Virus record (IMG/VR): IMGVR_UViG_3300031566_000192
Location: 1 to 35,258 of that record
Reading direction: 5' to 3' (one strand)
Source: a virus
Length of the DNA: 35,258 bases
Part shown: positions 1,750-31,492 of the stretch, in pieces
Layout of the letters: each line of letters starts with the position of its first letter
Numbering within the stretch: the stretch's first letter is position 1
Program-made: the position numbers and the translations under genes
The notes under the pieces: model-generated
Databases searched by the model: none
What the model was told of the DNA's origin: nothing
Seen by the model: only the letters and a program-made list of their open reading frames with translations

Positions 1750-1780
1750 AAACCAGGTTCGGCCCGGCCAGGCCAAAAGC

Positions 1781-1809
1781 TTTCAACTCTCCCTTTTGTC
1801 GAGTACAAT
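1781..1809 (+). promoter_or_regulatory. Sigma70-type promoter candidate, TTTCAA-17-TACAAT
   Basis: TTTCAA at 1781-1786, a 17-nt spacer, then TACAAT at 1804-1809. It lies about 33 nt upstream of the TTG start at 1842, which has RBS AAGGGAG. Confidence 0.5.
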
Positions 1810-1841
1810 GAAACCAGTGTTGACTTAAAGGGAGTTTATTT

Positions 1842-2231
1842 TTGGCAAATCCTAATTCTTGTATATTGCGAGAGGAACAAATTTGGAACCGAGTGTTCAT
1901 TGCACACAAGAACGCAATTCGTGTTGTTGTCGATGCCGTGAACGAGCGTGAAGTTGTTCGAATAGCGGTGCAACCCGGTGACGTTGGAAACGAACTTGAA
2001 ATCACGATTCCGAAAGAAGTCGTTGCGTTCACAATGAGAGTGAGAGGAAATTCACGAGCAAAGATTTCGCCCGTTCAAGGCGACATTGCAAACGAAATAT
2101 ATTTTTCCCTTGGGCCTCATTGGGTTTGGAAAGAACAACACCTCGCCGGGAAAGATGATTTCAAACTTTATATTGAAATGGAAAAACAAAGAGACATTGA
2201 AATTTTCCTTTGGAAAGGTGAATTTCAATAA
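1842..2231 (+). CDS. Hypothetical beta-rich protein (129 aa), first gene of a five-gene orphan block
   Basis: TTG start lies 7 nt after AAGGGAG (1828-1834). Track ORF. Confidence 0.65.
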   Translation: MANPNSCILREEQIWNRVFIAHKNAIRVVVDAVNEREVVRIAVQPGDVGNELEITIPKEVVAFTMRVRGNSRAKISPVQGDIANEIYFSLGPHWVWKEQHLAGKDDFKLYIEMEKQRDIEIFLWKGEFQ

Positions 2232-2251
2232 TTTAGACAAGGAGCGTCACA

Positions 2252-2839: not shown

Positions 2840-2847
2840 GAAAATAA

Positions 2848-3231
2848 ATGGGACACAACACAAGTGAATTTGAAATAAAAAATTCGGAGGGTGAAACAAC
2901 AACACTCTCCGGAAATACATCGGGAACGCCTTTCGTGACAATTCCGTTGCCTCCGGCGGCCGACAAAATCATTGAGACGATATTCATTGAGAATCTCGCA
3001 CCTTTGGTTGACGGGACGCAAATTGGTTTTGACACAACAACTCCAGGCCCGAACAAGGATTCCGAAATTCAAGTTTCAATTGACAACGGCACGACATTTC
3101 GAACGATATACGCCGGACAAGGATTCACTTTCGACACAAGAGAAAACAAACAAGTTCTCGTGAGGTCGAACATTGCAAATTGTCCCTTTTTAACAATAAT
3201 CAAATTCGAAAAATTCGACGAGGTGTCATGA
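2848..3231 (+). CDS. Hypothetical beta-rich protein (127 aa)
   Basis: Track ORF. The stop overlaps the next start. Confidence 0.75.
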   Translation: MGHNTSEFEIKNSEGETTTLSGNTSGTPFVTIPLPPAADKIIETIFIENLAPLVDGTQIGFDTTTPGPNKDSEIQVSIDNGTTFRTIYAGQGFTFDTRENKQVLVRSNIANCPFLTIIKFEKFDEVS

Positions 3232-3851: not shown

Positions 3852-4320
3852 CAAAAATGCAAATGACGAAATCGTTGTCAAAGAATTTCCGTTCAAATCA
3901 AAATTCACAAAAGACGGGAAACTCTATCGTGAAAAGTTTGGTGCCGTTTTTACACTGAAAGACAAAGACACCGACGGGGGAATCACCATTGTTGAGATTG
4001 AAAACCCGTTTGACATTGCACGAGTAAACAAAGCCGAGTTCAAATGGTTTCCGGAGGGCGTGACCGCCGATTTTTACATTCTCGACAACCTGGCCGGCGA
4101 CTATCAAGCAAGCTTGGGATCACCCAACCCGGTTCCAAACGCACCACTCACAAAACACGGACACGGAGTCGGGATTGCAAAAGACAATGACGAGGACGTT
4201 TCCGAGTATGACGCAAAATTGATCAAAGGAATGAAATTGAGAGTCGTTCTCACAAACACGACAACGACAACAAAAGTTTGTTGTCTCAATGTTGTCTTTC
4301 ACAATGAGGTCATTTCATGA
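3844..4320 (+). CDS. Hypothetical protein (158 aa)
   Basis: Track ORF, overlapping its neighbours at both ends. Confidence 0.75.
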   Translation: MFDKNANDEIVVKEFPFKSKFTKDGKLYREKFGAVFTLKDKDTDGGITIVEIENPFDIARVNKAEFKWFPEGVTADFYILDNLAGDYQASLGSPNPVPNAPLTKHGHGVGIAKDNDEDVSEYDAKLIKGMKLRVVLTNTTTTTKVCCLNVVFHNEVIS

Positions 4321-4802
4321 TTGTTCAAGAATTATTTTCAAAGAGAGAGGGTGACTTTTTCTCATGGTTGATTCGATTTGCAACAAAACCACTTGCAAAG
4401 AAAACACCATTCAAAAACATACCGAGTCACAATTGTATTCGAAAAGGCCATTTCGTATATGAGTCAACATTCTTTTCGGGCGTTCGAATCGTTCCTTTTG
4501 AGTCCTGGAAAAAGATCAACACAATCGTCGGAGTCAATCAAAAGTCAATTCCGATTTCGGATTCACAATTCGAAAAGGTTTTTGTTGATATTTGGGGGAA
4601 AAAATATGATTGGAAAGGGATTCTTTATTTTGGTTTTTCTCTTGTGCGTTTTCGATTGTTCGGGAAACCGATCCCAAAGGTCAACAAATGGAACGACAAA
4701 AACAAATATTTTTGTTCCGAGGCAAGCGGAAAACTATTCGGAATCGACTATCAAATGACGGCACCCGTTCAAATTCTCGAGCTTGGTTGTCCGGACAATT
4801 GA
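4317..4802 (+). CDS. Permuted papain-like amidase/peptidase (YaeF/YiiX, C92-type)
   Basis: His-before-Cys order: ...IPSHNCIRKGHFVYESTFFSGV... then ...KKYDWKGILYFG...NKYFCSEASGKLFG. This fits the permuted NlpC/P60-like pattern as I remember it. The assignment is by eye only. Confidence 0.55.
   Translation: MIVQELFSKREGDFFSWLIRFATKPLAKKTPFKNIPSHNCIRKGHFVYESTFFSGVRIVPFESWKKINTIVGVNQKSIPISDSQFEKVFVDIWGKKYDWKGILYFGFSLVRFRLFGKPIPKVNKWNDKNKYFCSEASGKLFGIDYQMTAPVQILELGCPDN
4787..4801. promoter_or_regulatory. TTGTCCGGACAATTG motif (perfect 12-bp palindrome TTGTCCGGACAA plus 3 nt), a candidate regulator binding site
   Basis: The exact reverse complement CAATTGTCCGGACAA occurs at 24636-24650. The palindrome centre lies 41.5 nt upstream of the terS ATG. 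Confidence 0.55.
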
Positions 4803-4827: not shown

Positions 4828-4833
4828 TTTCGG

Positions 4834-5418: not shown

Positions 5419-6910
5419 TCAAATCAAAATCGAGCTGGCCAAAAGGCATTTGCTCGATTTCACACGACACACGAAAAAGAATTACAAAGTAAACTGGCAC
5501 CACGAACAATTGTGCGAGAAACTCGAGGCATTTGCCAGGGGCGAAATTCCCCGACTCATGGTTTTCATGCCACCGAGACATGGAAAGTCCGAACTCGGTT
5601 CAAGGCGATTGCCGGCCTATATACTCGGACAAAACCCGAACGCCGAAATCATTGCGTGTTCGTACTCGGCCGACCTGGCAACCAAGATGAATCGTGACGT
5701 GCAAAGAATCATCGACTCTCCGGAATACCGAGAGATTTTCCCGGACACTCAACTCAACACAAAGAACGTTGTTTCAAGTGCAAAGGGATCATATATTCGA
5801 AACGCAACCGAGTTTGAAGTCGTTGGACATTCCGGAGGATATCGTTGTGCCGGAACCGGAGGGGCCGTCACGGGAACCGGGGGAACTCATTTGATTGTTG
5901 ACGATCCGATCAAGAACATGGAGGACGCAAACTCCGAAACAATCCGTCAAAAGGTTTGGGATTGGTACACGTCAACACTATACACGAGACTTGAATCAAC
6001 CATTGAGGAAAACGGGAAAGAGTCCGAGGACGAGGGTTCGATCCTGGTCATTCTCACACGATGGCACGAGGACGATCTTGCCGGTCGATTGCTCGCCCTG
6101 GCCCAATCCGATCCGGGGGCCGATCAATGGGAAATCCTTGAATTGCCGGCAATCAAAGAAAACACAACAAACCCGGACGATCCAAGGAAAGTCGGCGAGG
6201 CCTTATGGCCTGGAAAATATCCGATCAAGAGATTGAACAAAATCAAAGCGTCCGTCGGTTCAAAGGTTTGGTCAAGTTTGTTCCAACAACAACCGACTCC
6301 GGGCGAGGGTGCGATCTTCTTGAGACAATGGTTGCAAAATTTTTATTTTACATTACCGGAAACCAGGTGCGACTTGAAACTCATTTCGTGCGACCTCACA
6401 TTCAAAGACACAAAGACCGCCGATTTCGTTGTCATGAGTGTGTATGCGAAATATGGTTCCCAGGTGTTTTTGATCGACAAAATAAAAAAGAGAATGGACT
6501 TCACAACAACCTTGACCGAGTTCAAGGCACTCGTTGAAAAGCACTCGGACGCAACGATCAAACTCGTTGAGGAAAAAGCAAACGGGGCGGCCTTGATCTC
6601 AATGCTTTCAAAGTCAATCCCTGGAATTGTTCCGGTGATTCCAAAAGAATCAAAGACCGCACGAGCACACGCCGTCACGCCTTTTTACGAGGCCGGGAAT
6701 GTTTTCTATCCTCATGAATCAATTGCACCTTGGATTGGTGATCATATTGTCGAAATGTCGGCGTTCCCTTTTGGACGCAATGACGACTCGGTTGACGCCG
6801 AAACTCAAGCAATCTCGAGATTCATGATCGGCCAGGCCGACGCATGGACAACCGAGGACGGCGAGGAGTACAATGAAAATGAAACACTAATTGAACAAAT
6901 GGAATGGTGA
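5399..6910 (+). CDS. terL: Terminase large subunit
   Basis: Walker A-like MPPRHGKSE and Walker B-like HLIVDDP, with a C-terminal nuclease-like acidic region. ATG 5399 is preferred over the track TTG 5339, which would overlap terS by 80 nt. Confidence 0.9.
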   Translation: MTIPSNDQIKIELAKRHLLDFTRHTKKNYKVNWHHEQLCEKLEAFARGEIPRLMVFMPPRHGKSELGSRRLPAYILGQNPNAEIIACSYSADLATKMNRDVQRIIDSPEYREIFPDTQLNTKNVVSSAKGSYIRNATEFEVVGHSGGYRCAGTGGAVTGTGGTHLIVDDPIKNMEDANSETIRQKVWDWYTSTLYTRLESTIEENGKESEDEGSILVILTRWHEDDLAGRLLALAQSDPGADQWEILELPAIKENTTNPDDPRKVGEALWPGKYPIKRLNKIKASVGSKVWSSLFQQQPTPGEGAIFLRQWLQNFYFTLPETRCDLKLISCDLTFKDTKTADFVVMSVYAKYGSQVFLIDKIKKRMDFTTTLTEFKALVEKHSDATIKLVEEKANGAALISMLSKSIPGIVPVIPKESKTARAHAVTPFYEAGNVFYPHESIAPWIGDHIVEMSAFPFGRNDDSVDAETQAISRFMIGQADAWTTEDGEEYNENETLIEQMEW

Positions 6911-6914
6911 GAAT

Positions 6915-9119
6915 ATGGAAAACCAAGAACATGAATTGAGAGAGGGACAAGGAACCGAGTTTGAAATCAATCAAACGCCGGTGAAAGTTGTCGAGATCGG
7001 ATCAAGCGGAACGGAAATATTTGCCGGATATCTTGCCGAGGAGTATTTGCAAGAATTGCAAGGAACCGCCGCCGCCGACATATATGACAAAATGAGACGT
7101 TCCGATCCGAAAGTCAAAATGATTCTTTCCGCAATGAAAAATCCGATCAAGGGTGCAACGTGGGAAATCAATGAAAAAGGCGACGAGACTCGAGAGGGTG
7201 CAATTCAAAAGGCTTTCATCGAACATATACTTTTCAATGATCTTGGAAAGACCTGGAAATCATTTTTGCACGAGGCTTTGTCTTGCATTGATTTCGGGTA
7301 TTCACTTTTCGAGGTAACATATTCGGCGGTTTTGAATCATGAAAAGTGGGGATCATATAACGGAATTAGATCACTTGCTTTCCGCTCACAAAGAACGATT
7401 GAAAAATGGGAAATCAATCGTCACGGGGAATTGAAATCAGTATATCAACAAGCCGACGGCGATCAACAAAAAACAATATATATTCCGGCGAAATATCTCG
7501 TTCACTTTGCACTCGAGAGAGAGGGCGACAACTTTGAGGGAATCTCGATCTTGCGTCCGGCATATGGCCCTTGGTTGCGAAAGAATACATTTTTGAAACT
7601 TATTGCGGCCGGGATTGAAAAATATGCGATCCCAATTCCAATCCTGGAAATTCCGGAGGGGAAACAAGGTTCGGCCGAATACAAGACGGCACTCAATGCA
7701 ATGAAACGATATGTTTCGCACCAATGCAATTATTTGACGGTTCCGTTCGGTTGGAAACTCACATTGAACTCGAATCCTTTTGATGCCTCAAAGATTCGTG
7801 AAGTAATTGACGCCGAAAATGTTGAGATCGTGAACGCCGCACTTGCAAATTTCCTTGAACTTGGTCAATCCGGTTCGGGATCATATGCACTTTCGTTTGA
7901 CCTTTCCGACTTTTTCCTCGGAGGTCTTGAATATGTTGCGGAACAAATTGCGGAAACGCTCAACGCTCAATTGATTCCAAACTTGATTGCATTGAATTTC
8001 CCGGATCAAAAATGCCTGGTTGAACTCTCGGCGTCCGGAATCTCGGATCGTGCCGGCGAGGAGTTCTCAAAAATCATCATGAATCTTGTGAGTTCACAAA
8101 CATTGACTCCGGACGATCGACTTGAGGACAACTTGAGAAAACGTTTCGGGTTGCCGGAACGAGACGAAACAACGTCGAGGAAAGTTGAGGCACCTCAACC
8201 AACGCCCGGGCCTGGCCCTCAACAACTTGCGGAAAAAGGTGACGAGACTTTAAAAAAAAAGTCAAGTGATCCCGTGAAAGCAAAGATCGAGGAGGATGCC
8301 GAAAAGCTCAAATTGATCATGCAAAGAAACTTGAAAGCAATCGCCGAGGACGTTTCAAAACAAGCGGCGAAACATTGGAAAGATTCATCGGAGGACGAAC
8401 GTGTTGCACCTCCAAAGGAATATGACATCAAGGCCAGTGTTGAAAAATATCGAAAAGAAGTCACCGAGGAACTTGCCAGGCAATACAACACGGCCGTTGA
8501 ACAAGTCCGAGGAGAAAACCCTTTTTTCAAAAATATCAAATTGAGTGAAACGGCGACTCAAATCAAACTTGCCGAAAAAGACAAATTGAACAAAAAAGGA
8601 CTCATTCGAATCAACGGAATCGTTGATTCATTGGTTGACATCAACACGGGCGAAATCATCAAGACAAATGATTTGCAATACACACAAAGTGCGGACAAGG
8701 TTGCCGACGCCCTGGAAATTCAAACAAATATGATTGAACAAACAAATAAAAAGATCGACGGCCCAATGACGTCATCGGGTGCACTCTTGAACGCATCGAC
8801 GATGATCAACATTGCAAGGAAAGATTTTTTTGGTGAAATGATCAAGACGGGAGAGGTTGAGTCATTCACTTGGATCAACTCCGATCCGATCACCGACATT
8901 TGCAAAGGGTTGAACGGGATCACTTTGAAAGCAGACGATCCGGCCGTCCAAACGTACTGGCCGCCGTTGCATTTCAATTGCAAAACATACGTGACCGCAA
9001 ACACAAGCAAGACACAAGGGAACCCGGAACCACAAAACGGATTCGTTCCGACAAAGTCCCAGGAATCATCAATCAATTTGGCCGAGGCCTGGCCCGGACA
9101 TTGTCCGGATCATTGTTGA
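6915..9119 (+). CDS. Portal protein (Mu gp29/DUF935-like) fused to a Mu F / SPP1 gp7 minor-head domain
   Basis: The N-terminal ~440 aa (DIYDKMRRSDPKVKMILSAMKNPIKGATWEI...) is portal-like. A linker PQPTPGPGPQQ follows. The C-terminus carries DPITDICKGLNG...WPPLHFNCKTYV, the MuF/gp7 signature. ATG 6915 follows the terL stop. Confidence 0.8.
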   Translation: MENQEHELREGQGTEFEINQTPVKVVEIGSSGTEIFAGYLAEEYLQELQGTAAADIYDKMRRSDPKVKMILSAMKNPIKGATWEINEKGDETREGAIQKAFIEHILFNDLGKTWKSFLHEALSCIDFGYSLFEVTYSAVLNHEKWGSYNGIRSLAFRSQRTIEKWEINRHGELKSVYQQADGDQQKTIYIPAKYLVHFALEREGDNFEGISILRPAYGPWLRKNTFLKLIAAGIEKYAIPIPILEIPEGKQGSAEYKTALNAMKRYVSHQCNYLTVPFGWKLTLNSNPFDASKIREVIDAENVEIVNAALANFLELGQSGSGSYALSFDLSDFFLGGLEYVAEQIAETLNAQLIPNLIALNFPDQKCLVELSASGISDRAGEEFSKIIMNLVSSQTLTPDDRLEDNLRKRFGLPERDETTSRKVEAPQPTPGPGPQQLAEKGDETLKKKSSDPVKAKIEEDAEKLKLIMQRNLKAIAEDVSKQAAKHWKDSSEDERVAPPKEYDIKASVEKYRKEVTEELARQYNTAVEQVRGENPFFKNIKLSETATQIKLAEKDKLNKKGLIRINGIVDSLVDINTGEIIKTNDLQYTQSADKVADALEIQTNMIEQTNKKIDGPMTSSGALLNASTMINIARKDFFGEMIKTGEVESFTWINSDPITDICKGLNGITLKADDPAVQTYWPPLHFNCKTYVTANTSKTQGNPEPQNGFVPTKSQESSINLAEAWPGHCPDHC

Positions 9120-9165
9120 CTCAAATCATTTGATCGGCGACAATAATTGAAAATGGAGTTTTTAC

Positions 9166-15792: not shown

Positions 15793-18622
15793 ACTCATAG
15801 TCAAGATCGGTGCAAACGCCGATCAATTTGCGTCCGAACTCGAAAAGGTTGGATCAACGACAAAGAATCTTGAAAAAAATCTTGCGACGGTTGCGAAAAT
15901 ATCCGGTGCCGCATTTGCCGCCGGAACCGCAACGATTGCCGCCGCAACAATTGCGGCCGGAAACTTTGAGGACAAGTTCACAAACGTTGTCACACTTTTG
16001 GACAAAGGTTCATTTGCCTCGAAAAGTCTTGAACAAGGAATTGAGGGACTCAAAAAAGGAGTCATTGAACTTGGTCAAGAAACGGGAGCGTCATTCGAGG
16101 ATTTGAACAAAGCATTGTTCGACTTGATTTCATCGGGTGTCCCGGCCGAGGAGGCCATTGACACTTTGAGAGTCACAACTCAACTTGCGGCCGCCGGTGC
16201 AACGGACACGGCAACGGCCGTCCAGGCATTGACCGCAACCATGACATCATTCGGCGAAAGTGCCGGAACCGCCGCCGAGATTTCCGAAAAGTTTTTCACC
16301 GCTCAAAAGTTTGGTGTCACAACGGTCGGTGATCTTGCAAGTGAGTTCTCAAAGGTTGCCGGAACCGCAAATTCACTTGGGATTTCGTTTGACGAGGCCC
16401 TCGCATCACTTTCGGCATTGACCGCCGACGGTGCGAAACCAACAAACGTCGCCGCAACACAATTGAAAGCAACGTTGACAAGTTTGATCAACGTTCAAAA
16501 GAACTTGTCGAGTGAATCGCAAGCAATACAAGAGGCCTTGAGTCTCCAAAATTTAAAGTCAAAGGGACTTGTCGGAGTTCTCGACGAGTTGAAAGTCGCA
16601 ACCGGAGGGAACGTCGTTGAAATGCAACGATTGTTCGGGAGTGCCGAGGGACTTGCCGTTGCACTTTCATTGACCGGAGCACAATCGGAACTCGTCAAAA
16701 AACAAATTGCCGAAATGGCCGACGAACAAAAACGTGCCGCCGTATTTGCCGACGCACTTGCGGTCAAACAAGAAAATTCAAAAAAAGCATTTGAGAGATT
16801 TTCGAGGGTGATCGAAACCGCCGCAATTGTACTTGGTGAACAATTCGCACCAATCGTTGCGAAAGCCGCCGAGTTGTTGGGAGAGTTTTTCAAAATACTT
16901 GTAAACAATCCAGTTCTCGCAAAAACCGCCGCCCTTGTCATTGGACTTGGAACGGCACTCGCCGGAATTGCCGCCGCCGGTGCACTTGCCGCAACCGCAT
17001 TTTTGAAAATCAGAGCGGCAATGGTTGCCTTGAGTATATCAACAAAAGTTCTTTCAATTGGAATCAAAGGTCTTGTCGGAGCGACGGGATTTGGATTGTT
17101 GTTGATTGTAATTTCCGAAATATATGCAAATTGGGAAACAATATGGCCGGCCGTTGTGAGAATATTCTCGGCAACGGTCAACGCACTTGCAAACCTTGGT
17201 GCCGGTCTTGGAAAAATCCTCAAAGGAATATTCACTTTTGACGGTGACGCAATTTCCGAGGGAATGGACATGGCCAAAAAAGCGATTTCCGATGGCCTTG
17301 ACGACATAATTGACGCCGTCAAAGGCAAGGAGGACGCAAAGGTTGTCGTTCCAATCACGGCGAAAGTTGATGAAAGCCAGGTTCAAGGCGAGGTTGACAA
17401 GCTTTCAAAAGCCGGTGAAAAAGGGAGTGTTTCGGTTGGTGCCGGTGCAACGGTTGCGAAAGGCGACTCGGGCCAGGCCGCAAAGGATGATTCACTTGCA
17501 AAATTGAAAGAAAATGAATCGGCAAAAACAAAAGCATTGAACGAGGAACAAAAAAAGAGAATCGCACAAAACAAAGCCGCACTTGATTTGATCCAAAATC
17601 AAAACGCCGGTGCAACACAACAAGAGCTTGATTTCATCAAAAGAAAAAATGAACTTGCACTTGCCGAGCAAGCGGCGGCACAAGAAAAAAATCAAGCGGT
17701 TCGTGATAGTGAACTTGAACTCATTGCCGCTCAACGTGCGGTGCTACTTGAGGAGGAACGTGTTTTTCTTGAGGAAAAACGAGCAATTCAAGCCGAGGAT
17801 CGTGAAACAAAGGCCGCATTGAACGAGGAACTCAAAGCACTTTCCGAATCGGAACGTGCCGAACTCAACCAACAAGAACTTGATCAAATTCAAGCTCAAA
17901 TTCTCTCCAAAAGAGAGGTTGAGGACTCGGAGGCGAAAAGAAAACTCGACTTTGAAATCAAAAGACGAAACCAATATTTGAAAGATGAAAAACAATTCGG
18001 AAAAACATCGGCCGAGATCAACAAGTTTCTTTCAAGTGAAAGCGTTCAACTTGCAAAACAAAGTGCAAACGAACTTGTTGGACTGGCCCAATCTAAAAAT
18101 AAAACGCTCGCAAGTATAGGCAAGGCCGCAAGCGTGACACAAATTGCGATAGATACTGCCACAAATGCGGCGTCAATTTTCGCAAAACTCAACGCACTTT
18201 TTCCAATCCTGGCACCTGGAATTGGTTTCGCCGGTGCGGCGGCAATCACCGCATTTGGTGCCGAAAAAACCGCAAACGTTCTCGCCGCAAATGAGGGGGG
18301 ACTTGTCCCGAGGAACCTTGGGACGCCCGGGAAAGACTCAATTCCTGCAAGTTTGACACCTGGAGAGTTGGTTGTCCCCGAAAAGAATTTTGACGAGGTC
18401 GTCAACTCGGTTGCGTCCCAACGTTCCGGAGGTTCATCGTCGAGCGATTCAAATTCCGCACTTGTTGGACTTCTTTCCTCGATTGATCAAAAATTAAATA
18501 AACTGGAAAGTCCGGTCACAATCAACGGTGACGTTCTTGACTCCGAACCTTTTGTTGATAACATCATGGAAAAAATTCGGGATGCAAGGGACTTTCGAAA
18601 CGCAACACTTGAGGGGCTTTAA
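15773..18622 (+). CDS. Tape measure protein
   Basis: 949 aa from ATG 15773. It has Ala-rich hydrophobic segments and long coiled coils, plus the C-terminal GGLVPRNLGTPGKDSIPASLTPGELVVP motif. Its position after G/GT fits. Confidence 0.9.
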   Translation: MASTTSELIVKIGANADQFASELEKVGSTTKNLEKNLATVAKISGAAFAAGTATIAAATIAAGNFEDKFTNVVTLLDKGSFASKSLEQGIEGLKKGVIELGQETGASFEDLNKALFDLISSGVPAEEAIDTLRVTTQLAAAGATDTATAVQALTATMTSFGESAGTAAEISEKFFTAQKFGVTTVGDLASEFSKVAGTANSLGISFDEALASLSALTADGAKPTNVAATQLKATLTSLINVQKNLSSESQAIQEALSLQNLKSKGLVGVLDELKVATGGNVVEMQRLFGSAEGLAVALSLTGAQSELVKKQIAEMADEQKRAAVFADALAVKQENSKKAFERFSRVIETAAIVLGEQFAPIVAKAAELLGEFFKILVNNPVLAKTAALVIGLGTALAGIAAAGALAATAFLKIRAAMVALSISTKVLSIGIKGLVGATGFGLLLIVISEIYANWETIWPAVVRIFSATVNALANLGAGLGKILKGIFTFDGDAISEGMDMAKKAISDGLDDIIDAVKGKEDAKVVVPITAKVDESQVQGEVDKLSKAGEKGSVSVGAGATVAKGDSGQAAKDDSLAKLKENESAKTKALNEEQKKRIAQNKAALDLIQNQNAGATQQELDFIKRKNELALAEQAAAQEKNQAVRDSELELIAAQRAVLLEEERVFLEEKRAIQAEDRETKAALNEELKALSESERAELNQQELDQIQAQILSKREVEDSEAKRKLDFEIKRRNQYLKDEKQFGKTSAEINKFLSSESVQLAKQSANELVGLAQSKNKTLASIGKAASVTQIAIDTATNAASIFAKLNALFPILAPGIGFAGAAAITAFGAEKTANVLAANEGGLVPRNLGTPGKDSIPASLTPGELVVPEKNFDEVVNSVASQRSGGSSSSDSNSALVGLLSSIDQKLNKLESPVTINGDVLDSEPFVDNIMEKIRDARDFRNATLEGL

Positions 18623-23367: not shown

Positions 23368-24036
23368 ATGTCTATAGCTTATGGGTTCAACGAAAAAGGG
23401 TATTTTACAAGTCCTATTCCGATGCAAAAAAACCCTTTCAAACAAGGAGAATATTTGGTTCCATCAAACGCAACATTGATCGAACCTCCGGACGCTTCTA
23501 GCTATTCAGCCGACAAATTGCCTTTGTTCAACGAGGATTCAAAAACGTGGGAACTTGTTGACTCTCCGGCAAAAATCGCCGATGACAACGCAAAACTTGA
23601 GGTTGTGAATGATTGGGGCGTTTGTTTGTACGAAAGAGATTCAAGCGGAAACGTTGTTTTGCGTGATGTTCAAGAGGTTGATTCGGAAACAACGCAAATT
23701 TCAACTCAATTCAACAATGAACAATCGTTGAAAAACTTAAAAGAAACAATGGACGGCGCAATCATTCAAAAATCATTTGAAATGACCGGCGCAAGTTCAA
23801 TTGAAAGCGCCCAGGCATTCATGCAAGCTTTTCAAGTTCGAATTGCAAACGCTTCAAAATATGTCAATGATGGCCTTGTTGTTTTTTGTGCGACAACAAG
23901 TTTTCAAAAGTTTGACGATTTGGACACTGAACAAAAAATCGTTGATTATTATTCGGAAACTCTTGTTGAAATGGACAAGTTTAGGAATCAAAAAATTCAA
24001 GAATATTTGCAATCAAAGTCGGAACTTGGTCTTTAA
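23368..24036 (+). CDS. Hypothetical protein, possibly a tail fiber assembly chaperone
   Basis: It sits directly after the fiber gene. The N-terminus MSIAYGFNEKGYFTSPIP...LIEPPD loosely resembles Tfa-type chaperones. Confidence 0.4.
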   Translation: MSIAYGFNEKGYFTSPIPMQKNPFKQGEYLVPSNATLIEPPDASSYSADKLPLFNEDSKTWELVDSPAKIADDNAKLEVVNDWGVCLYERDSSGNVVLRDVQEVDSETTQISTQFNNEQSLKNLKETMDGAIIQKSFEMTGASSIESAQAFMQAFQVRIANASKYVNDGLVVFCATTSFQKFDDLDTEQKIVDYYSETLVEMDKFRNQKIQEYLQSKSELGL

Positions 24037-24602
24037 TTTCTAGGCGTCAAACCAAAAGTTGTGATGATATATTTGTCATTTGAAATTGGTTTGACGCCCT
24101 CATGAAAATAACGCCAAGTTGATGGGAAAATCACAAGTGTTCCGGCTTTTGGTTTTATTTCGATTTCCTGGAAAGGGAATTTTGTTTCGCCACCCTCAAG
24201 AACATCATTCAAATAAAAAATCGGCGCAAGGAATCGCGCATCGTTCAAATTTCGCTCATCGTTGTCGGTATGGGGTTTAAAAAATCCTTGTCCTTTGAAT
24301 GATTTTTGCATTTGCAATCCCCCCCAAAAAATTGGCGTTCCTTTCAAATTGAAATATCTTGATTTTATTTGGCACAATGCAATCTCAAGAATTTTTGAAT
24401 ATTTTGAATTGAGATTTTCCGAATCAATGTGCCAGTCTATAGAATTTTTCACTCCAGGTGAATAACCGCCACCGGTTTTCCCGTTGAATTTGTTTGGTGA
24501 CGTTTCAAACGCCTCAATTGTGTCAATGCAAAGTCGGTCACTTATAGCATTTTCCCAAACAAAAATTCCCGTTTTTTTCTCAAACTCTTTGTTGTATTCC
24601 AT
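24033..24602 (-). CDS. 2OG-Fe(II) oxygenase (prolyl-4-hydroxylase-like)
   Basis: HxD in FKPHTDNDE, a distal His in WRYFHEG and a basic residue in DKYIITTF. RBS AAAGGAG. Confidence 0.8.
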   Translation of the reverse strand: MEYNKEFEKKTGIFVWENAISDRLCIDTIEAFETSPNKFNGKTGGGYSPGVKNSIDWHIDSENLNSKYSKILEIALCQIKSRYFNLKGTPIFWGGLQMQKSFKGQGFFKPHTDNDERNLNDARFLAPIFYLNDVLEGGETKFPFQEIEIKPKAGTLVIFPSTWRYFHEGVKPISNDKYIITTFGLTPRN

Positions 24603-24650: not shown

Positions 24651-24692
24651 AACATGATTTGAATTAGTTTCCGGCCAGGCCAGGCCTTGAGG

Positions 24693-24721
24693 TTGTGAGA
24701 ACTCTCAAAATCGAATATGAT
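24693..24721 (+). promoter_or_regulatory. Promoter candidate TTGTGA-17-TATGAT (leaderless geometry)
   Basis: TTGTGA at 24693-24698, a 17-nt spacer, then TATGAT at 24716-24721. ATG 24728 is the 7th nt after the -10, with no SD. Confidence 0.45.
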
Positions 24722-24727
24722 TCAAAG

Positions 24728-24967
24728 ATGAACGAAATAAACATGACATTGACAATCCTTGGTTCACTTGTTTCACTTTTGTTGCTACTCAATGCACATT
24801 TTACAAGAAAAACACTTGAGAAAATCACAACCGTTGAAATTCAACTTGCGGTTTTGATTTCAAAACACGATTCGACCGACGAACGTGCAAGGAAAAATGA
24901 ATTTGAAATCGAATTATTGAAAAGCAAGATCAACAAACTCGAAACAAAGGTTTTGAGTAATCAATAA
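24728..24967 (+). CDS. Membrane protein with an N-terminal TM helix and a coiled coil (holin or i-spanin-like)
   Basis: MNEINMTLTILGSLVSLLLLLNAHFT followed by a heptad-rich tail. The start was chosen from the promoter geometry. The track start GTG 24695 has no usable RBS. Confidence 0.55.
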   Translation: MNEINMTLTILGSLVSLLLLLNAHFTRKTLEKITTVEIQLAVLISKHDSTDERARKNEFEIELLKSKINKLETKVLSNQ

Positions 24968-26322: not shown

Positions 26323-26391
26323 AAATGAATAGGCCGTCCCTGGCCTGGCAAATCCTTTGCAAACAGTCCGTGTTTGATATATTGTCTCAAT

Positions 26392-26664
26392 ATGAACTCA
26401 AAGCGTCGAGATTTAATTTTACAGGTTGCAAACGACAACATGGATGCGTTGCCTATCATTCACCAATTGGACGGATTTGTTCACGCCGAGAGAATTTTCG
26501 AGTGGATGATTCAAAACAAAATGGTCGGTCAATCTCTTGTTGAAACATATGTTCACGATTTCAAATGTTCATGGTTGTCGCTTGGAAAATGGGTGATCAT
26601 GAAAGCAAACAAAGACACTCAAATTCGAAAAATAATTGCCGGGAAAGACTATATTTGCAAGTGA
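26392..26664 (+). CDS. Hypothetical protein (90 aa)
   Basis: ATG 26392 lies 8 nt after the -10-like TATATT (26378-26383), with -35-like TTTGCA at 26356-26361. The track start is TTG 26374. The 3-prime end overlaps the convergent VRR-NUC gene by 16 nt. Confidence 0.55.
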   Translation: MNSKRRDLILQVANDNMDALPIIHQLDGFVHAERIFEWMIQNKMVGQSLVETYVHDFKCSWLSLGKWVIMKANKDTQIRKIIAGKDYICK

Positions 26665-26978
26665 TTTTTCACGCACTCGATTGAGTATGCAACAAAGGCG
26701 ACACCGCCGTTTGATTTGATTGTTTCCAGGAACTCAACTTGACCTTTTGACGGTTTTCCTTTTGAATCTTTTTTCACCTCAATGGCCAGGAACCGACCGT
26801 CCGGCAAGATTCCGAGAATGTCAACGGGATCGCCGCAAACTTTTTCCCATTTATTTTTTTTACGAAAACCGCCCTCGATTTTTTTGTCAAACACCGAACC
26901 GTTGTTGTTCCTCCATGCCGACACTTTTTTGAACATCAAGAATTGCAGAATCGAGTTTTGAACCTCGGTTTCCGACAT
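26649..26978 (-). CDS. VRR-NUC domain nuclease
   Basis: GDPVDILGILPDGRFLAIEVKKDSKGKPSKGQVEFLETIKSNGGVAFVAYS is the PD-(D/E)xK VRR-NUC core. The start is taken at MSETEVQNSILQFL (ATG 26978). Confidence 0.78.
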   Translation of the reverse strand: MSETEVQNSILQFLMFKKVSAWRNNNGSVFDKKIEGGFRKKNKWEKVCGDPVDILGILPDGRFLAIEVKKDSKGKPSKGQVEFLETIKSNGGVAFVAYSIECVKNHLQI

Positions 26979-27576
26979 TGAATAGATCGTTTTGTTCAAA
27001 ATAAAACCTCCGAAAAATTTCCTCACAAGCGAGGCGATCCGACTTTGCATTGTGGTGATCGAGTTCAATACTAAAATGATCGGCGAGGTTTTTCAACTTT
27101 GCACTTTGCATTTTCAAGGCCCGTGCAATTGTCACGGTTGAAATGATTTTTTTCTCGTCAAAATACTTGTAAAAATCAAAATATTTGTCCTGGAAAGCAA
27201 AATCCATTTTGATCATTGCAAAATCAAAGTGTGCGTGAATATGAGTCTTGGTGACATCATTGAAAGACGACTCACTTGCATGACAAAGAAACGCAAATTT
27301 GCGATCTTTTGGCAACCAATCAATCAATTTTTGCAAACTCTCCGGTCTTTCCGGAAAGTTGTCGGCGGTTTTTTTTGAAATCCGATGAATCCGTCTCGCC
27401 TCCTCGTCCCAATGATAGGGACGAGATTTGAGTTCAAGTTCGTCGATTGTTTCCAGGGTTTCCGGGTGCAATTTTCCGAACGATCCGGTGATCCAACACG
27501 CACCATGAACATCAAGTCCGGTTGTTTCGAGATCGCACGAAATTATTGCGTCAATATCACCTGGAATTTCGATCAA
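26887..27576 (-). CDS. DEDDh 3-prime to 5-prime exonuclease (DnaQ-like)
   Basis: ExoI is IISCDLETTGLD and ExoIII is HHNAKSDRLACEEIF. TTG 27576 lies 7 nt after GGAGG and one base after the upstream stop. The track ATG 27621 would overlap the upstream gene by 44 nt. Confidence 0.78.
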   Translation of the reverse strand: MIEIPGDIDAIISCDLETTGLDVHGACWITGSFGKLHPETLETIDELELKSRPYHWDEEARRIHRISKKTADNFPERPESLQKLIDWLPKDRKFAFLCHASESSFNDVTKTHIHAHFDFAMIKMDFAFQDKYFDFYKYFDEKKIISTVTIARALKMQSAKLKNLADHFSIELDHHNAKSDRLACEEIFRRFYFEQNDLFNVGNRGSKLDSAILDVQKSVGMEEQQRFGV

Positions 27577-27577
27577 C

Positions 27578-28147
27578 TTAATACCTCCAAAAAAAAACGA
27601 TTCGTTTCCATTTCGGGACATACGTTTTTTTCACGGCCTCAATTGTGTCGTTTCCGTCGATCAACTTCAAATGACAATATTTGATTATTTTATTGAGTTG
27701 ATAGCAAATTGAAAAATGTCGTCTCTTTGTTTCGTTGAAATCGTGATCAAATCCGAGTTTGTGTCCCCACTCGTGACAAATATTTCCCTCGACACCAATG
27801 ATTGACATTGACCAAAAGAATTTGCGATTGATCCATTGTCGAATTGTGTTCCCATATGTATATCCGACAACGTTCGAAAATGGTTTCGGGTTGAAAATTG
27901 TGAGATCAATGTCGGCCTCATTGTCAATTTCCGGTTGTAATGTTTCCGCACCACTCATGAAGTGTTCGAAAATCTCTTGATTTGTTTTGTGTTTCCAATT
28001 TGAAGTTTCGCCCGAAAAGTCCGCTCGCAAAAACTCTTGTCGAAACATTTCCGAATTGCAAATCAACTCGAGATTGACTCTCGCCTCCTCGAGTCTCACG
28101 AGTTCTTTTGGGGTGAATTGTTGGTGATCAATTTTAAATTTTAGCAT
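27578..28147 (-). CDS. Small metallopeptidase-like protein with the metzincin motif HExxHxxGxxH
   Basis: HEWGHKLGFDH is encoded at 27743-27775 (verified codon by codon). 189 aa. Confidence 0.65.
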   Translation of the reverse strand: MLKFKIDHQQFTPKELVRLEEARVNLELICNSEMFRQEFLRADFSGETSNWKHKTNQEIFEHFMSGAETLQPEIDNEADIDLTIFNPKPFSNVVGYTYGNTIRQWINRKFFWSMSIIGVEGNICHEWGHKLGFDHDFNETKRRHFSICYQLNKIIKYCHLKLIDGNDTIEAVKKTYVPKWKRIVFFWRY

Positions 28148-28470
28148 TTTGAGTTCCTTTCAATAAAATCTTTTTTCTTTTGTTCGTACTCGTGCAAAAC
28201 CATTGAGAAAACACTCGCCTTTGAGTTTGAAAGTAATTCCCTGGCAAGTTCGACCTCGTCTTTCAATATTCGATTTTCAACTTGCATGTCGGCAAGTTTT
28301 GCCAGTTTGAAATTTCCGTCTTTTTCTCTTGTCACAAGGCCAGTGTCAAGAAACGCCTTTGTGTTTGCAAGTAGTTTTTCAACATACTTGATCAAAACCT
28401 CGTCGGCAATTGGTTTCCCTTTTTTCTTGAGTTGTTCTTGTGTCCACAACCACGCCTTTAAATATTCCAT
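28141..28470 (-). CDS. Hypothetical helical protein (109 aa)
   Basis: RBS AAGGAG lies 8 nt upstream. Track ORF. Confidence 0.75.
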   Translation of the reverse strand: MEYLKAWLWTQEQLKKKGKPIADEVLIKYVEKLLANTKAFLDTGLVTREKDGNFKLAKLADMQVENRILKDEVELARELLSNSKASVFSMVLHEYEQKKKDFIERNSKC

Positions 28471-28471
28471 T

Positions 28472-28864
28472 TCAATGACTCCTTTGGTTTACAACCGTTT
28501 GATTGACTTCATGCAAACGATCATTCATTTCACGAATTTGCATGTTTTGACTTTCACTCAATATGTACTTTGTTCGGAGTTGTTTGAATGACTCGTCTTT
28601 TTCTTTGATGATTTCAACGGCGTCGTTCACTTGTTTTGAAAGGCCATTTGTCATGATCTCGTAATTTTCAACAAGTTTTTTCATTGCAAAATAAAGATCG
28701 TAATTCATCAAGGCGGCCGAGTAATTCAATAAATTAAAAAAGAAAATCAACCCGAACCCGACATTCGGCAAATTTTCATTGCGAAACAAATGCCACGCAA
28801 AAACATATATTGTCATATGAAAGACAAATGAAATTGCCTTTTTTGTTTTTCTTTTCATTGCCAT
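28472..28864 (-). CDS. Membrane protein (two predicted TM helices plus a coiled coil)
   Basis: ATG 28864 lies 5 nt after AAGGAG and overlaps the helicase stop (ATGGCAATGA). The hydrophobic segments are AISFVFHMTIYVFAWHLF and VGFGLIFFFNLLNYSAALM. Confidence 0.65.
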   Translation of the reverse strand: MAMKRKTKKAISFVFHMTIYVFAWHLFRNENLPNVGFGLIFFFNLLNYSAALMNYDLYFAMKKLVENYEIMTNGLSKQVNDAVEIIKEKDESFKQLRTKYILSESQNMQIREMNDRLHEVNQTVVNQRSH

Positions 28865-30360
28865 TTTCTCTCCTTTACGTTGAACCATTTTCCATTTTTT
28901 TCAGCAATTATTTTTTTCGGGTTTCCCATGAGTTTCAAATCTCTTTGAAATTCTCTTTGAAAATATGTTCCGGCTTTCAACCATTCTTTCACAATTCCTT
29001 GCATGGTTGTATATTGAACAAACCAACAACGATTTCCGGCCTTTGAAATGTATTCCTTGTCAATTGTGATCGAAAGAACATCAAGTTCGACATCAATTCT
29101 TGCGTTTTCGTTGAACTTGTATTCCCTGGCAATCTCGTCAAGGTTTTTCGTGTGTCTCCTCGGGCCGGTTGGTTCCTTGTAAAATTCAAAACCACAATCT
29201 CGACATTCTTGAACTGGCAAAAAATTCATTTCCATGCAATTCGGACAAATGATCGCTTGTTTTTCTCCCTTTCCTTTCGTTTTTTTCTCAACAATCGGAT
29301 CGTTCGGGTGTCCCAGGTTTTCAACGATCTCGCCGTAATCCAAGAACAAACAATTTTCTTTCCCCTCAAAGAGTCGCAGACCTCGACCAACAAGTTGAAC
29401 ATATAACACGGGCGATCTCGTCGGCCTCATTGCAACAATTGCGTCAATGGCCGGAAAGTCATATCCCTCGGAAACCATTGTCACACTCGAAATATGTCTC
29501 ACGTCATGTGTTTCAAAAGATTCCATATTGAACAATTGGTGACGTTTTCCAAGTTTTGAATGAATGATCGTACAATCCTCATATTCTTGAACAACTCTTT
29601 GAACCAATTCGGCGTGTTTGATGCAAGTGCATGACCAAACAACTTTTTTTCGTCCGGAGAGTTTTGTCAAAGCGTCGGCGACTTGTGTTCGAACCTTTTT
29701 TTCATCAAGAGACATTTTCTCAACGTCTCTCAAAATGAACTCGCCTCTCCTTGTTCGGAGTTGTGAAGTGTCAAACGCCTCGGTTGTTCCTTTGAAAACG
29801 GGTTCGACAATATATCCGGCCTCAATCATTTGTTTCATTGTTCTTTTGAAATCAATGCAATTGTTCGGCTTGTCCTCTCCAAAAATATATCCGGCAACCG
29901 TGAAAGGTGTCGCCGTGAATCTCACGATTTTCAACTTTGGATTTGCCTCTCTCAACCTGGCAATGTAATTCTTGTATGTCGGAGAGTTGTCGGCGTTGTG
30001 ACATTCATCAATGATCAAAAGATTCAAAACGGTTGTTGTTTTTTCAACCGATTGAATTGATCCGACCGTCACGGCGGCCTCGTTGTTGTATTCACCAAGT
30101 GAACCACAATACATTGAGACGTGTTGTTTCTCAAGTGCCAAATGCAATTTTTCTTGTGTTTGTGTCACAAGTTTCACCTGGTTCACGAGAATTTGTGCTT
30201 TCAATTGAGGATATATTTTCAAGATTTTTTCAAGCAACATTGTGAAAATGATAGTTTTCCCCGAGGCCGTTGGGAGAACGATCAATTGATCATCTTTGAA
30301 TTTCATCGTTTCCCAAATTTTATTGACGCATTGGTCTTGATAGGGCCTGGCCTGGATCAT
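28855..30360 (-). CDS. Superfamily 2 DEAD/DEAH-box helicase with a C-terminal Zn ribbon
   Basis: RPYQ, motif I LPTASGKT, motif II DECH, motif III FTATP and motif VI QLVGRGLR. The Zn ribbon is CPNC...CRDCG. Confidence 0.9.
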   Translation of the reverse strand: MIQARPYQDQCVNKIWETMKFKDDQLIVLPTASGKTIIFTMLLEKILKIYPQLKAQILVNQVKLVTQTQEKLHLALEKQHVSMYCGSLGEYNNEAAVTVGSIQSVEKTTTVLNLLIIDECHNADNSPTYKNYIARLREANPKLKIVRFTATPFTVAGYIFGEDKPNNCIDFKRTMKQMIEAGYIVEPVFKGTTEAFDTSQLRTRRGEFILRDVEKMSLDEKKVRTQVADALTKLSGRKKVVWSCTCIKHAELVQRVVQEYEDCTIIHSKLGKRHQLFNMESFETHDVRHISSVTMVSEGYDFPAIDAIVAMRPTRSPVLYVQLVGRGLRLFEGKENCLFLDYGEIVENLGHPNDPIVEKKTKGKGEKQAIICPNCMEMNFLPVQECRDCGFEFYKEPTGPRRHTKNLDEIAREYKFNENARIDVELDVLSITIDKEYISKAGNRCWFVQYTTMQGIVKEWLKAGTYFQREFQRDLKLMGNPKKIIAEKNGKWFNVKERKWQ

Positions 30361-30665
30361 TCTTTCACCTCAAATTCGGCGTCAATTGCCGGTTGAATTT
30401 CAAGTTCTTGTTGTCCGTCCGATCTCTCGATCAATTCAAGATTTTCCTCGGCATATTCAACGAACGCCTCAACGGTTTCCGTTCGATTCTTTCCGTTCTC
30501 ATACCTATACATGACCATTGCAACGGCGTTTTTGAAAAACTCCGATCCCGAAACCTCAACGTAATTCAAAGCAAGAATCAAGTTTTGTTTCATTTTCTTG
30601 TCAAAATATTTTCCAGGGATCAACGAAATCAATCCAAATTTTTCATGCAAATTTTGTTCACTCAT
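30357..30665 (-). CDS. Hypothetical protein with an acidic C-terminus (102 aa)
   Basis: Track ORF, with ATGA overlaps at both ends. Confidence 0.75.
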   Translation of the reverse strand: MSEQNLHEKFGLISLIPGKYFDKKMKQNLILALNYVEVSGSEFFKNAVAMVMYRYENGKNRTETVEAFVEYAEENLELIERSDGQQELEIQPAIDAEFEVKE

Positions 30666-31492
30666 TTCAAACCTCTCAAAATGTATTCAATAACTGGCAC
30701 CGTCACGGCGTTTCCTATTTGCTTGAACCTTTGTGAGTCGCTCACAAGTTCCGTCCAACCCTCGGGGAATCCTTGCAAGAGTTCACAGTCCTCCGGGTGC
30801 AATGTAAACTTTTCGCCGTCAATGTCACGAAAGTTCTTTGACGAAAAGGAACCACAACCCGGGCCGGTTGTGAGTGTGTTTGCTCGCCCGTCCCTGGTTT
30901 CCCTTTCCTCCTTGTATTTTTCACGGTCTTTCGGATATCGCCAAGAGCTTGACCATGCAATCAACTCGTCCCAACGCTCGCCCGTTTCCGGCATTGGTTC
31001 CGTCAAATCCCAATTGAACCAATAAAGACGACGACGTTTTTGAGGCGTGAAATGATCCGAATTGATTTCGATTGCATCGACACCAAGTGTTTCGGAAATC
31101 AAGTCACGATCTTGCTTTGACATCGAGGCGACGTTTTCCAAAAGGAAATGTTTTGGTTTTTTTGTTTTTAAAATTTGAACGTATGTCCAAAAGAGTCCGG
31201 ATTTCGTACCTTTCAAACCTTGTCGATTTCCCTTTGCAATTGAAAGGTCGTTACACGGTGAACCTCCGACCAAAAGATCAAAGTCCGGCAAGCATTTCAT
31301 CAAGTACGGCCAGGCCTCCAGGTTTCGAATGTCACCAATGTTTTTATTTGCGTTCAATGGAAAACGTTGCTCGAAAACTTTGATTGCATGTTGATCAATT
31401 TCAGACCAACCGACGCACTCGGAACGTTCAAAGGTGTTGTGAATAGCAAGTTCAAAACCTCCGACGCCGGTGAACAAACTCAAATATTTCAT
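30662..31492 (-). CDS. DNA (cytosine-5) methyltransferase, compact (276 aa)
   Basis: Motif I LSLFTGVGGFE, motif IV GGSPCNDLS, motif VI LLENV, motif VIII QKRRR and motif X QIGNAVTVPV. ATG 31492 follows AAGGGAGAG. The track start is TTG 31528. Confidence 0.9.
   Translation of the reverse strand: MKYLSLFTGVGGFELAIHNTFERSECVGWSEIDQHAIKVFEQRFPLNANKNIGDIRNLEAWPYLMKCLPDFDLLVGGSPCNDLSIAKGNRQGLKGTKSGLFWTYVQILKTKKPKHFLLENVASMSKQDRDLISETLGVDAIEINSDHFTPQKRRRLYWFNWDLTEPMPETGERWDELIAWSSSWRYPKDREKYKEERETRDGRANTLTTGPGCGSFSSKNFRDIDGEKFTLHPEDCELLQGFPEGWTELVSDSQRFKQIGNAVTVPVIEYILRGLK

Follow-up and report, generated by a model that had tools for sequence, protein, structure and literature searches.

The highly iterated palindrome HIP1 (GCGATCGC) is over-represented 15–300-fold, reaches more than one copy per gene, is conserved inside open reading frames (ORFs) as well as between them and is unlinked to gene regulation (PMC5861425). 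Its occurrence goes with that of orphan methyltransferases for the inner sites (PMC4390886). The C-dependent late promoters of phage Mu have a −10 hexamer, no −35 element and a 16-bp imperfect dyad centred at −43.5 (PMC2582627), while very short patch (VSP) repair turns T:G mismatches in CTWGG into CCWGG and in this way maintains Dcm sites (PMC2715241). Here we analyse the 9-bp palindrome GGCCWGGCC (W, A or T) in a 35,258-nucleotide (nt) stretch of viral DNA, IMG/VR record IMGVR_UViG_3300031566_000192, referred to below as the window. An initial annotation had likened the motif to HIP1 and offered a host signature, a methylation-dependent signal or a protein-binding site as its meaning. The evidence favours the last of these, and we judge it somewhat better than an even chance that GGCCNGGCC is the upstream dyad of a phage promoter class, a putative site for a dimeric factor that serves middle and late genes. 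About half of the copies appear to belong to a conserved promoter architecture, and the rest looks like compositional fallout.

Each of the nine copies listed by the initial annotation was found at its position (Table 1), six with A and three with T at the centre. At three non-homologous loci, which together hold four copies (1766; 6830; 24673 and 24678), the motif is followed after 29–30 nt by a hexamer TAYRAT (Y, C or T; R, A or G), always on the plus strand and before plus-strand genes. TAYRAT occurs at a rate of 0.0006 per position per strand, which over nine copies, both strands and two offsets gives an expectation of 0.02 coincidences; three were seen. We call these loci site A, the TerL site (TerL, terminase large subunit) and site B, and a further locus with a one-mismatch dyad site C. 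Site A falls between a gene for 100 amino acids (aa) (1447–1749) and a gene whose start at 1842 is preceded by a GGGAG ribosome-binding site. Site B lies between a 2-oxoglutarate (2OG)-Fe(II) oxygenase gene (24033–24602, minus strand) and the lysis-side block of plus-strand genes. The annotation's description of the intergenic copies as promoter-proximal is borne out. The 13-mer GAGTACAATGAAA is common to site A and the TerL site, the spacers of which are unrelated.

Downstream of sites B and C an ATG follows the hexamer after 6 nt with no ribosome-binding site, and the genes 24695–24967 and 26392–26664 may therefore be leaderless, as far as can be read from the sequence. The GTG start called by the database at 24695 has a poorly spaced ribosome-binding site and looks doubtful. 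Candidates for a −35 element are weak (TTTCAA, TTGTGA and TTGCAA, with 3–4 of 6 matches), the best being TGGACA at the TerL site with 5 of 6. Such weak matches are what would be expected if the promoters were factor-dependent.

Table 1. Positions of GGCCWGGCC copies, linked promoter-like elements and the methyltransferase gene in the window, with the corresponding sites of related phages.
Feature	Positions	Strand	Location	Arrangement
Site A, GGCCCGGCCAGGCC	1761–1774		intergenic	copy 1766 (1766–1774) plus a third GGCC in 5-bp register
−10-like hexamer TACAAT, site A	1804–1809	+	intergenic	29 nt past copy 1766; 33 nt before the start at 1842
TerL copy	6830–6838		3′ end of the terminase large subunit gene	GGC CAG GCC, G-Q-A, with the rare CAG codon
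TerL promoter-like stretch	6845–6874	+	within the terminase gene	TGGACA (6845–6850), 18-nt spacer, TACAAT (6869–6874); hexamer 30 nt past the copy and 41 nt before the portal ATG at 6915
Copy 8209	8209–8217		middle of the portal gene	G-P-G-P; lineage-specific, in 0 of 7 relatives, variable peptide region
Copy 9086	9086–9094		last portal codons	E-A-W-P; cluster of three GGCC; 21 nt upstream of TTGACT-17 nt-GACAAT; ambiguous
Copy 17471	17471–17479		tape-measure gene	G-Q-A; no −10-like hexamer at the fixed distance
Site B, GGCCAGGCCAGGCC	24673–24686		divergent intergenic region	two overlapping copies, 24673 and 24678
TATGAT, site B	24716–24730	+		29 nt past copy 24678, then 6 nt to ATG 24728
Site C	26342–26394	+		one-mismatch GGCCTGGCA, 29 nt, TATTGT (26380–26385), 6 nt, ATG 26392
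Copy 30344	30344–30352		codons 3–6 of the helicase gene (minus strand)	Q-A-R-P; lineage-specific
C5 cytosine DNA methyltransferase	30662–31492	−		276 aa, short DNMT3-like, motif IV GSPCNDLS
Copy 31308	31308–31316		within the C5 methyltransferase gene	E-A-W-P; lineage-specific
Site A in L037				GGCCAGGCC, 29 nt, TACAAT
Site A in L038				GGCCCGGCC, 29 nt, TAAACT
TerL site in L037, L064 and L069				W-centred dyad, 30 nt, TAYAAT
TerL site in L038				GGCCGGGCC, 30 nt, TATACT
Site B in L065			upstream of the homologous small gene	GGCCCGGCC, 29 nt, GACAAT
Site C in L065				GGCCCGGCA, 29 nt, TATTGT, 6 nt, ATG

On the favoured reading GGCCNGGCC would be a two-fold symmetric element just upstream of the −35 region, with its centre near −46 if transcription starts about 7 nt past the hexamer, which would itself be the −10 element. 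A dimeric transcription factor, phage-encoded or from the host, would bind the dyad and switch on middle and late operons, namely the genes before the packaging module, the portal and head genes and the lysis-side genes. Constraint would apply only to the pair of GGCC half-sites and to how far they lie from the −10 hexamer, and the centre base would be free: W here, where CCWGG is a favoured word, and S (G or C) in relatives whose hosts evidently restrict CCWGG. Copies 8209, 17471, 30344, 31308 and perhaps 9086 would be non-regulatory. An unusually strong pressure against dozens of short words, which also drives synonymous sites to CCWGG and GGCC, would raise the background from about 0.1 to about 1–3 copies.

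Syntenic metagenomic relatives, reached through homologues of TerL and of the methyltransferase, allow the sites to be compared. Their TerL proteins are identical to that of the window phage at 78% (L037), 74% (L063), 71% (L064 and L070), 67% (L038 and L067), 65% (L069) and 62% (L040) of positions, and in L065 the methyltransferase is 84% identical; the L037 sample is cited in a study of a marine bone-degrading microbiome. The dyad at a fixed hexamer distance is present at the three loci of the window, at the one-mismatch locus and at syntenic loci in five relatives. When the non-coding site A is aligned between the window, L037 and L038, the columns that never vary are those of both GGCC half-sites, of the hexamer and of the end of the upstream gene, while the flanks diverge. 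Among non-redundant copies in the relatives, TANNNT stands at +29/30 in 8 of 15, against 1 of 14 copies in unrelated loci. Across the TerL gene of the phages that share the word dialect described below, synonymous-codon conservation peaks exactly at 6830–6865, where it is 0.86 compared with 0.52 overall.

The centre base of the dyad is W in phages that tolerate CCWGG (the window phage, L037, L064 and L069) and S in L038 and L065, which avoid it. GGCCSGGC(C/A) replaces the W form at four syntenic sites in these CCWGG-avoiding relatives, and the TerL gene of L038 reads GGC CGG GCC, so that G-Q-A becomes G-R-A and a glutamine-to-arginine replacement is the cost of the S centre. Conservation in the alignments thus appears to cover GGCC-N-GGC(C/A) and its spacing from the hexamer and not the CCWGG core. 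The initial annotation had noted three stacked potential methylation targets in the motif (GGCC, CCWGG, GGCC). The idea that this stacking is the point of the motif is not supported: with S at the centre of the syntenic sites it is not required, and L065 avoids CCWGG while carrying the 84%-identical enzyme. As for recurrence in related phages, the lack of which the annotation would have counted against its claim, the motif is kept at the promoter-linked syntenic sites, whereas copies 8209, 30344 and 31308 are absent from all relatives and the 12 kb of L070 contain no copy at all.

The counts themselves depend strongly on the null model. The annotation's rough estimate of well below one copy is confirmed by dinucleotide-preserving shuffles (mean 0.06, maximum 1) and by composition (0.08 at order 0), with masked higher-order Markov models rising to about 1. 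Models fitted on the sequence including the copies expect 0.37, 2.1, 3.6 and 8.1 copies at orders 3, 4, 5 and 7, and with the nine copies masked in training the values are 0.24, 0.81, 0.97 and 0.52 for orders 3–6; 300 simulations under masked training at order 3 or 4 never gave as many as nine copies. The one-sided forms, which the annotation had called frequent, occur 20 times (GGCCWGG) and 16 times (CCWGGCC), and N(GGCCWGG) × N(CCWGGCC)/N(CCWGG) gives 3.5 expected copies. The excess is therefore 9–11-fold against masked order 4–5 models, 2.5-fold against the self-fitted order 5 model and 2.6-fold against the motif's own 7-mers. The Markov check that had been called for thus upholds the enrichment against masked models, with the caveat that much of the 9-mer excess is carried by its component words, because the 7-mer-conditioned expectation is 3.5.

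Another possibility is that the motif has no function and is a pure by-product, GGCC and CCWGG being among the few G+C-rich words allowed in a genome shaped by restriction avoidance and the promoter proximity a coincidence or shared ancestry. The extreme dialect of the genome, the order 4–5 and 7-mer expectations of 2.1–3.6, the lineage-specific copies and the tendency of CCWGG-tolerant relatives to encode G-[QL]-A tripeptides as GGC CWG GCC all speak for such an origin. We nevertheless consider it unlikely, since the masked models expect only 0.2–1.0 copies, the distance of 29–30 nt to TAYRAT is fixed at three unrelated loci, and the dyad is conserved in non-coding DNA with diverged flanks. 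In addition, GGCCSGGCC occurs once in the window against nine W-centred copies, although CCSGG is as enriched as CCWGG.

A by-product would also have to account for the coding copies. Six copies are coding, and the peptides quoted for them in the annotation (GQA twice, GPGP, EAWP twice and QARP) are correct, as is the intergenic position of the other three (1766, 24673 and 24678). If the proteins and the codon usage are kept as they are, only 11 peptide contexts are able to encode the 9-mer, of which 6 do, against 0.37 expected (p = 2.6e-6), and codon models conditioned on up to three preceding bases expect 0.5–0.8 (p = 2e-5 to 2e-4). Both G-Q-A copies are written with CAG, a codon used for 26 of 465 glutamines. 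The claim that selection acts on the DNA and not on the peptides is thus supported.

The composition against which these counts are judged is itself unusual. TA occurs at 0.27 of expectation, CTA/TAG at 0.11, CAG/CTG at 0.20, AGC/GCT at 0.32 and CTTC/GAAG at 0.17; CGCG has 2 copies where 71 are expected and GCGC 10 where 71 are expected, and GGWCC (41 expected), GCWGC (41 expected) and CTSAG (55 expected) are missing altogether. Of the 64 hexamer palindromes 29 are absent, including GAATTC, ATCGAT, ATGCAT and GGATCC, whose loss is not accounted for by the short-word biases, while CGGCCG, CAATTG, TCCGGA and TTGCAA are enriched 3–7-fold. The losses are strand-symmetric, occur in all frames and persist against a codon-usage null (GGWCC 0 vs 36, GAAG 16 vs 184). 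As the annotation had stated, neither GGCC nor CCWGG is avoided, their counts being 2.0 and 2.2 times those expected from composition. Other over-represented words were seen as well. ACTCTCC/GGAGAGT occurs 36 times (for example at 1068, 1786, 14331 and 21002) where an order-2 model expects about 4; considered as a possible companion motif, it turned out to lie dispersed in coding DNA, in either orientation; ACTCTCCGG is found 12 times, mostly within genes and in both orientations, and CCTGGAAA/TTTCCAGG 22 times against 0.35 expected.

Codon choice follows the same words. Of 185 CWG trinucleotides, 91 lie inside CCWGG and 31 inside ACTGG/CCAGT, with other contexts depleted 6–100-fold. Glutamine is encoded by CAG and CAA in a ratio of 23:4 between C and G and 3:435 elsewhere, and leucine by CTG and TTG in a ratio of 20:5 in the flanking C/G context and 14:319 elsewhere. 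These flips are the synonymous routes from C[T]WGG to CCWGG (C-CAA-G to C-CAG-G and C-TTG-G to C-CTG-G) and are nearly saturated, with CTWGG overall just mildly low (0.69). The flip is present in L037, L070 and L064, and for glutamine it is reversed in L038 and L065 (0:11 and 0:2).

Close relatives differ in the words that they avoid. The composition of L063 and L040 is close to normal, L037 avoids GGWCC and not CGCG, and CCWGG falls to 0.05–0.07 of expectation in L038 and L065 (a single copy, 0.05, in L065), compared with 2.2 times expectation in the window. GGCC is not avoided in any member of the family (1.2–2.3 times expectation). Loss of short palindromes on both strands and irrespective of frame, with other sets lost in close relatives, is what restriction avoidance produces, and the differing dialects appear to follow the pattern of avoidance tuned to different hosts. 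Together with the codon flips, the dialect suggests a host exceptionally rich in restriction, or else a repair bias targeted to certain sequences. It is a more unusual feature of the window than the 9-mer and, though noted in passing, may be the more remarkable lead of the two.

The overlap of GGCC and CCWGG is probably favoured by the same forces that lie behind the enrichment of each, and these forces vary between relatives, as the counts in L069 and L070 indicate: in L069 the 9-mer contains 4 of 11 CCWGG sites, and L070 has 31 CCWGG and 53 GGCC with zero GGCCWGG/CCWGGCC, where about 5 would be expected. L063 likewise has none among its 28 CCWGG sites. The 7-mer GGCCWGG may itself be an avoided word in some hosts.

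Copies 8209, 30344 and 31308 fall in stretches where the peptide varies, and they fit a background inflated by the strong drive toward CCWGG and GGCC. At the helicase position L065 and L067 have GAG GCA AGG and GAG GCG AGA and hence no copy, while for copy 17471 the loci of the relatives end before this position. At the 3′ end of the portal gene, L037 has a copy that is 4 nt out of register and in another frame (P-G-Q-A vs E-A-W-P), and GGCC clusters are also kept there in L064, L070 and L038. The promoter-like TTGACT-17 nt-GACAAT (9113–9144) overlaps the portal stop (TGT TGA CTC) upstream of the protease/scaffold gene and is kept in all relatives examined (L037, L063, L064, L038 and L040). 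Copy 9086 was considered as a class-I-type site for this promoter and left as ambiguous: its distance differs by 4 nt between the window and L037, and the copy may be functional without a conserved distance. A further candidate, site D (GGCC at 13201, 29 nt, TATAAT), was set aside because both elements lie in a strongly conserved peptide and it has a half-site alone.

An iterated palindrome of the HIP1 kind, linked to methylation, kept genome-wide by a C5 methyltransferase and biased mismatch repair (or by chromosome-level selection) and mirroring the host, is an explanation to which we give a rather low probability. The motif is indeed built from words of the C5-methylase type in a phage that, as the annotation had noted, encodes such an enzyme. 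Its nine perfect copies are about as many as all one-mismatch variants combined (10), as though the 9-mer were an attractor, and GG flanks co-occur on the 90 CCWGG sites beyond independence (both, one or neither side: 9/18/63 observed vs 3.6/28.8/57.6). The T-to-C drive at C[T]WGG on synonymous sites is a known effect of Dcm/Vsr (PMC2715241), and the share of CCWGG sites inside the 9-mer in L069 would fit too. However, a density of one per 3.9 kb compares with about one per gene for HIP1 (PMC5861425), and the excess over the motif's own 7-mers is just 2.6-fold, outside the 15–300-fold range of HIP1. HIP1 sites are conserved in and between ORFs, whereas here only the promoter-linked sites are, the other coding copies being unconserved, so the resemblance to a highly iterated host signature is not supported. 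In addition, S replaces the centre, and hence the CCWGG target, at syntenic sites, the methyltransferase family is shared by CCWGG-avoiding phages, L070 has no GGCCWGG in spite of its many CCWGG and GGCC sites, no Vsr-like gene was found among the small proteins of the phage that were searched, and GCGATCGC itself is absent from the window.

The methyltransferase matches PF00145 (E = 6e-46) and, in the PDB, M.HhaI (1e-25, catalytic core), DNMT3A over the full length (3.5e-14) and M.HaeIII (4.5e-14), and it aligns end to end with the catalytic domains of DNMT3A/3B (E about 4e-14). Some of its homologues have been named 'DNMT 3A' by JGI annotators. The enzyme is conserved throughout the phage family, including members of normal composition, and its close homologues are all metagenomic proteins. 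We tried to derive its specificity from homology and rejected the attempt, as the PDB matches align in the catalytic core and the best homologues from cultured phages are at most 36% identical. Because L065 avoids CCWGG, the methyltransferase is unlikely to be what protects CCWGG, to judge from this comparison of genomes.

A different role for GGCC methylation would be to shield CCWGG sites flanked by GG and CC, on either strand, against a host nuclease with CCWGG or CWG as its target, so that shielded sites survive and accumulate. GGCC is never avoided in the family, and where CCWGG is scarce it is often found in the 9-mer (4 of 11 in L069, 1 of 3 in the L038 phage), so that shielding could add copies where CCWGG is restricted. 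As an account of the motif we regard it as highly unlikely: CCWGG is not avoided in the window (90 copies, 2.2-fold), where shielding would be unneeded, the fixed −10 distance and the S-centred copies are left unexplained, and the GGCC specificity of the methyltransferase is an assumption.

We also give little credence to an epigenetic timer, in which the methyltransferase would methylate the half-sites of GGCCNGGCC and 5-methylcytosine on replicated DNA would gate the late promoters or evict a host repressor. The facts that bear on it are the position of the methyltransferase in the early operon, the lack of GGCC avoidance in the family and the conservation of the half-sites and not of the centre, and this evidence neither excludes nor supports the idea. 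If it were true, the phage would use its own cytosine methylation to gate its late-gene programme.

The GGCC repeats could alternatively form stem-loops in RNA or DNA that serve as terminators or processing sites. Arrangements of the form GGCC-N6-GGCC are present at sites A, B and C, the upstream arm of site C has a small hairpin with ends that covary between the window and L065 (AGGCC..GGCCT vs GGGCC..GGCCC), and there is a terminator-like match on the minus strand at site A. Yet 0 of 8 motif regions fold better than shuffled controls (z −1.8 to +1.4), GGCC-N-GGCC cannot close a 1-nt loop and the third GGCC is lacking from site A of L037 and L038. No minus-strand gene ends at site A, and the sole match of the terminator scan lies on the strand without genes. 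We therefore attach almost no weight to this explanation.

Several points weigh against the promoter dyad. L070, with a TerL 71% identical, has GGCATGGCC at the TerL site and no motif copy in 12 kb, a terminator-like hairpin occupies the site B spacer in L065, and site B of the L038 phage is arranged differently. The geometry at TerL could partly be protein constraint, as the peptide G-Q-A ... Y-N is conserved. Four or five copies are left with no promoter explanation, somewhat above the 1–3 expected as background, and the −10 hexamers are assigned from sequence, with the transcription start positions deduced from them. Among about 30 small proteins there is no match to the Mor/C family (Pfam Mor, E <= 1 or <= 0.5; PHROGs). 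The sole recognisable DNA-binding protein in that set (Pfam, PHROGs) is a 66-aa Cro/CI-type helix-turn-helix protein, which was rejected as the binder as it is also present in a motif-free relative. The one protein whose presence tracks the motif, the 108-aa product of 32999–33325, is an acidic three-helix bundle (AlphaFold2 model, predicted local distance difference test score 75) with no PDB match. Finally, as a site for a helix-turn-helix dimer the 9-bp dyad would be short, its half-sites being 5 bp apart.

The window holds the complete circular genome of a tailed phage. Bases 1–127 are identical to bases 35132–35258, a 127-bp terminal direct repeat, and the assembly is therefore circular with a true length of 35,131 bp; the Prim-Pol gene (33368 onward) crosses the window end and finishes at 354. 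The early regions are taken to be 32802–1749 on the plus strand and the minus-strand operon 26649–32723. Among the products of the approximately 50 genes are both terminase subunits (small and large), a portal of the Mu type that has an F-like domain, a Mu-like protease/scaffold, a capsid protein, a tape measure, tail proteins and a CHAP/NlpC-P60 endolysin. Also encoded are Prim-Pol, a helicase, an ATPase (AAA_24), a single-strand-binding-like protein (DUF669), an exonuclease, the 276-aa methyltransferase and the 2OG-Fe(II) oxygenase. The oxygenase gene (PF13640; PHROG 61, E = 1e-33) stands alone on the minus strand where it adjoins site B and is absent from L065 at the corresponding position. 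No transposase was seen in the genome, which is therefore not that of a Mu-like transposable phage.

The same genome was found in nine metagenome contigs (JGI, ENA and Logan) that differ by at most 8 bases, a variation that gives no power for testing the motif sites, and a near-identity search against 50,697 phage records returned no match. A bacterial host is indicated by the endolysin type and the clear Shine-Dalgarno sequences. TerL scans of IMG/VR, JGI metagenomes and GTDB genomes in search of the host found only relatives of at most 54% identity (Paenibacillus and a Nitrospinales metagenome-assembled genome), and the distant TerL relatives do not share the word bias of the window. Two further features of the relatives were noted. 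L038 (19342–19839) and L064 (10813–11316) carry a GIY-YIG endonuclease gene on the opposite strand between tail genes, which is absent from the window. In L040 the Prim-Pol gene is followed by a 440-bp A+T-rich intergenic region (4016–4460) with repeated GTGGAA(A/G)/TTCCAC words that may be a replication origin with iterons; its counterpart in the window spans about 300 bp (354–657).

If the promoter dyad is correct, an uncultured phage family from sulfidic soils or sediments and marine bone-degrading communities would gain a testable late-promoter architecture from sequence. The free centre base of a regulatory palindrome would track the restriction-avoidance regime of each phage, even to the point of an amino-acid change in the terminase, and the system would show cleanly how gene regulation and the pressure of defence compete over the same nucleotides. 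A more general caution is that, where the word bias of a genome is extreme, a palindrome can be over-represented without being HIP-like. A literature search for the 9-mer returned just primers and human sequences.

The codon flips of the window follow the direction of change of VSP repair by Dcm/Vsr (PMC2715241), although neither vsr nor dcm was identified among the phage genes and selection for CCWGG would leave an identical pattern. Restriction-site avoidance in phages likewise removes short, mostly palindromic words from both strands and all frames, and it accounts for the switch between W and S at the motif centre; it explains absences and not a 9-mer excess at fixed promoter positions, and the breadth seen here (TA 0.27, CWG 0.20) far exceeds ordinary cases. 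Like HIP1, GGCCWGGCC is a short G+C-rich palindrome with methyltransferase-type sub-sites that lies in intergenic DNA as well as in several frames, exceeds what Markov models expect and is selected as DNA. It differs from HIP1 in having nine copies in 35 kb, in being conserved solely at promoter-linked sites and in the dispensability of its inner CCWGG.

The Mor and C promoters of Mu are the nearer comparison for the favoured reading of the dyad. The window element differs from theirs: it is perfect, G+C-only and 9 bp long, its half-sites lie 5 bp apart, a protein of the Mor/C family was not detected among the small proteins, and the starts and the binding are putative for the window phage. 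In both systems, however, there would be several such promoters per phage, with a recognisable −10 and a poor or absent −35, and with a dyad at a fixed place just upstream (−43.5 for Mu C and, by our estimate, near −46 here). In both they would stand before head, lysis and late genes, and the window phage, like Mu, has a Mu-type portal, a protease and F-like head genes.

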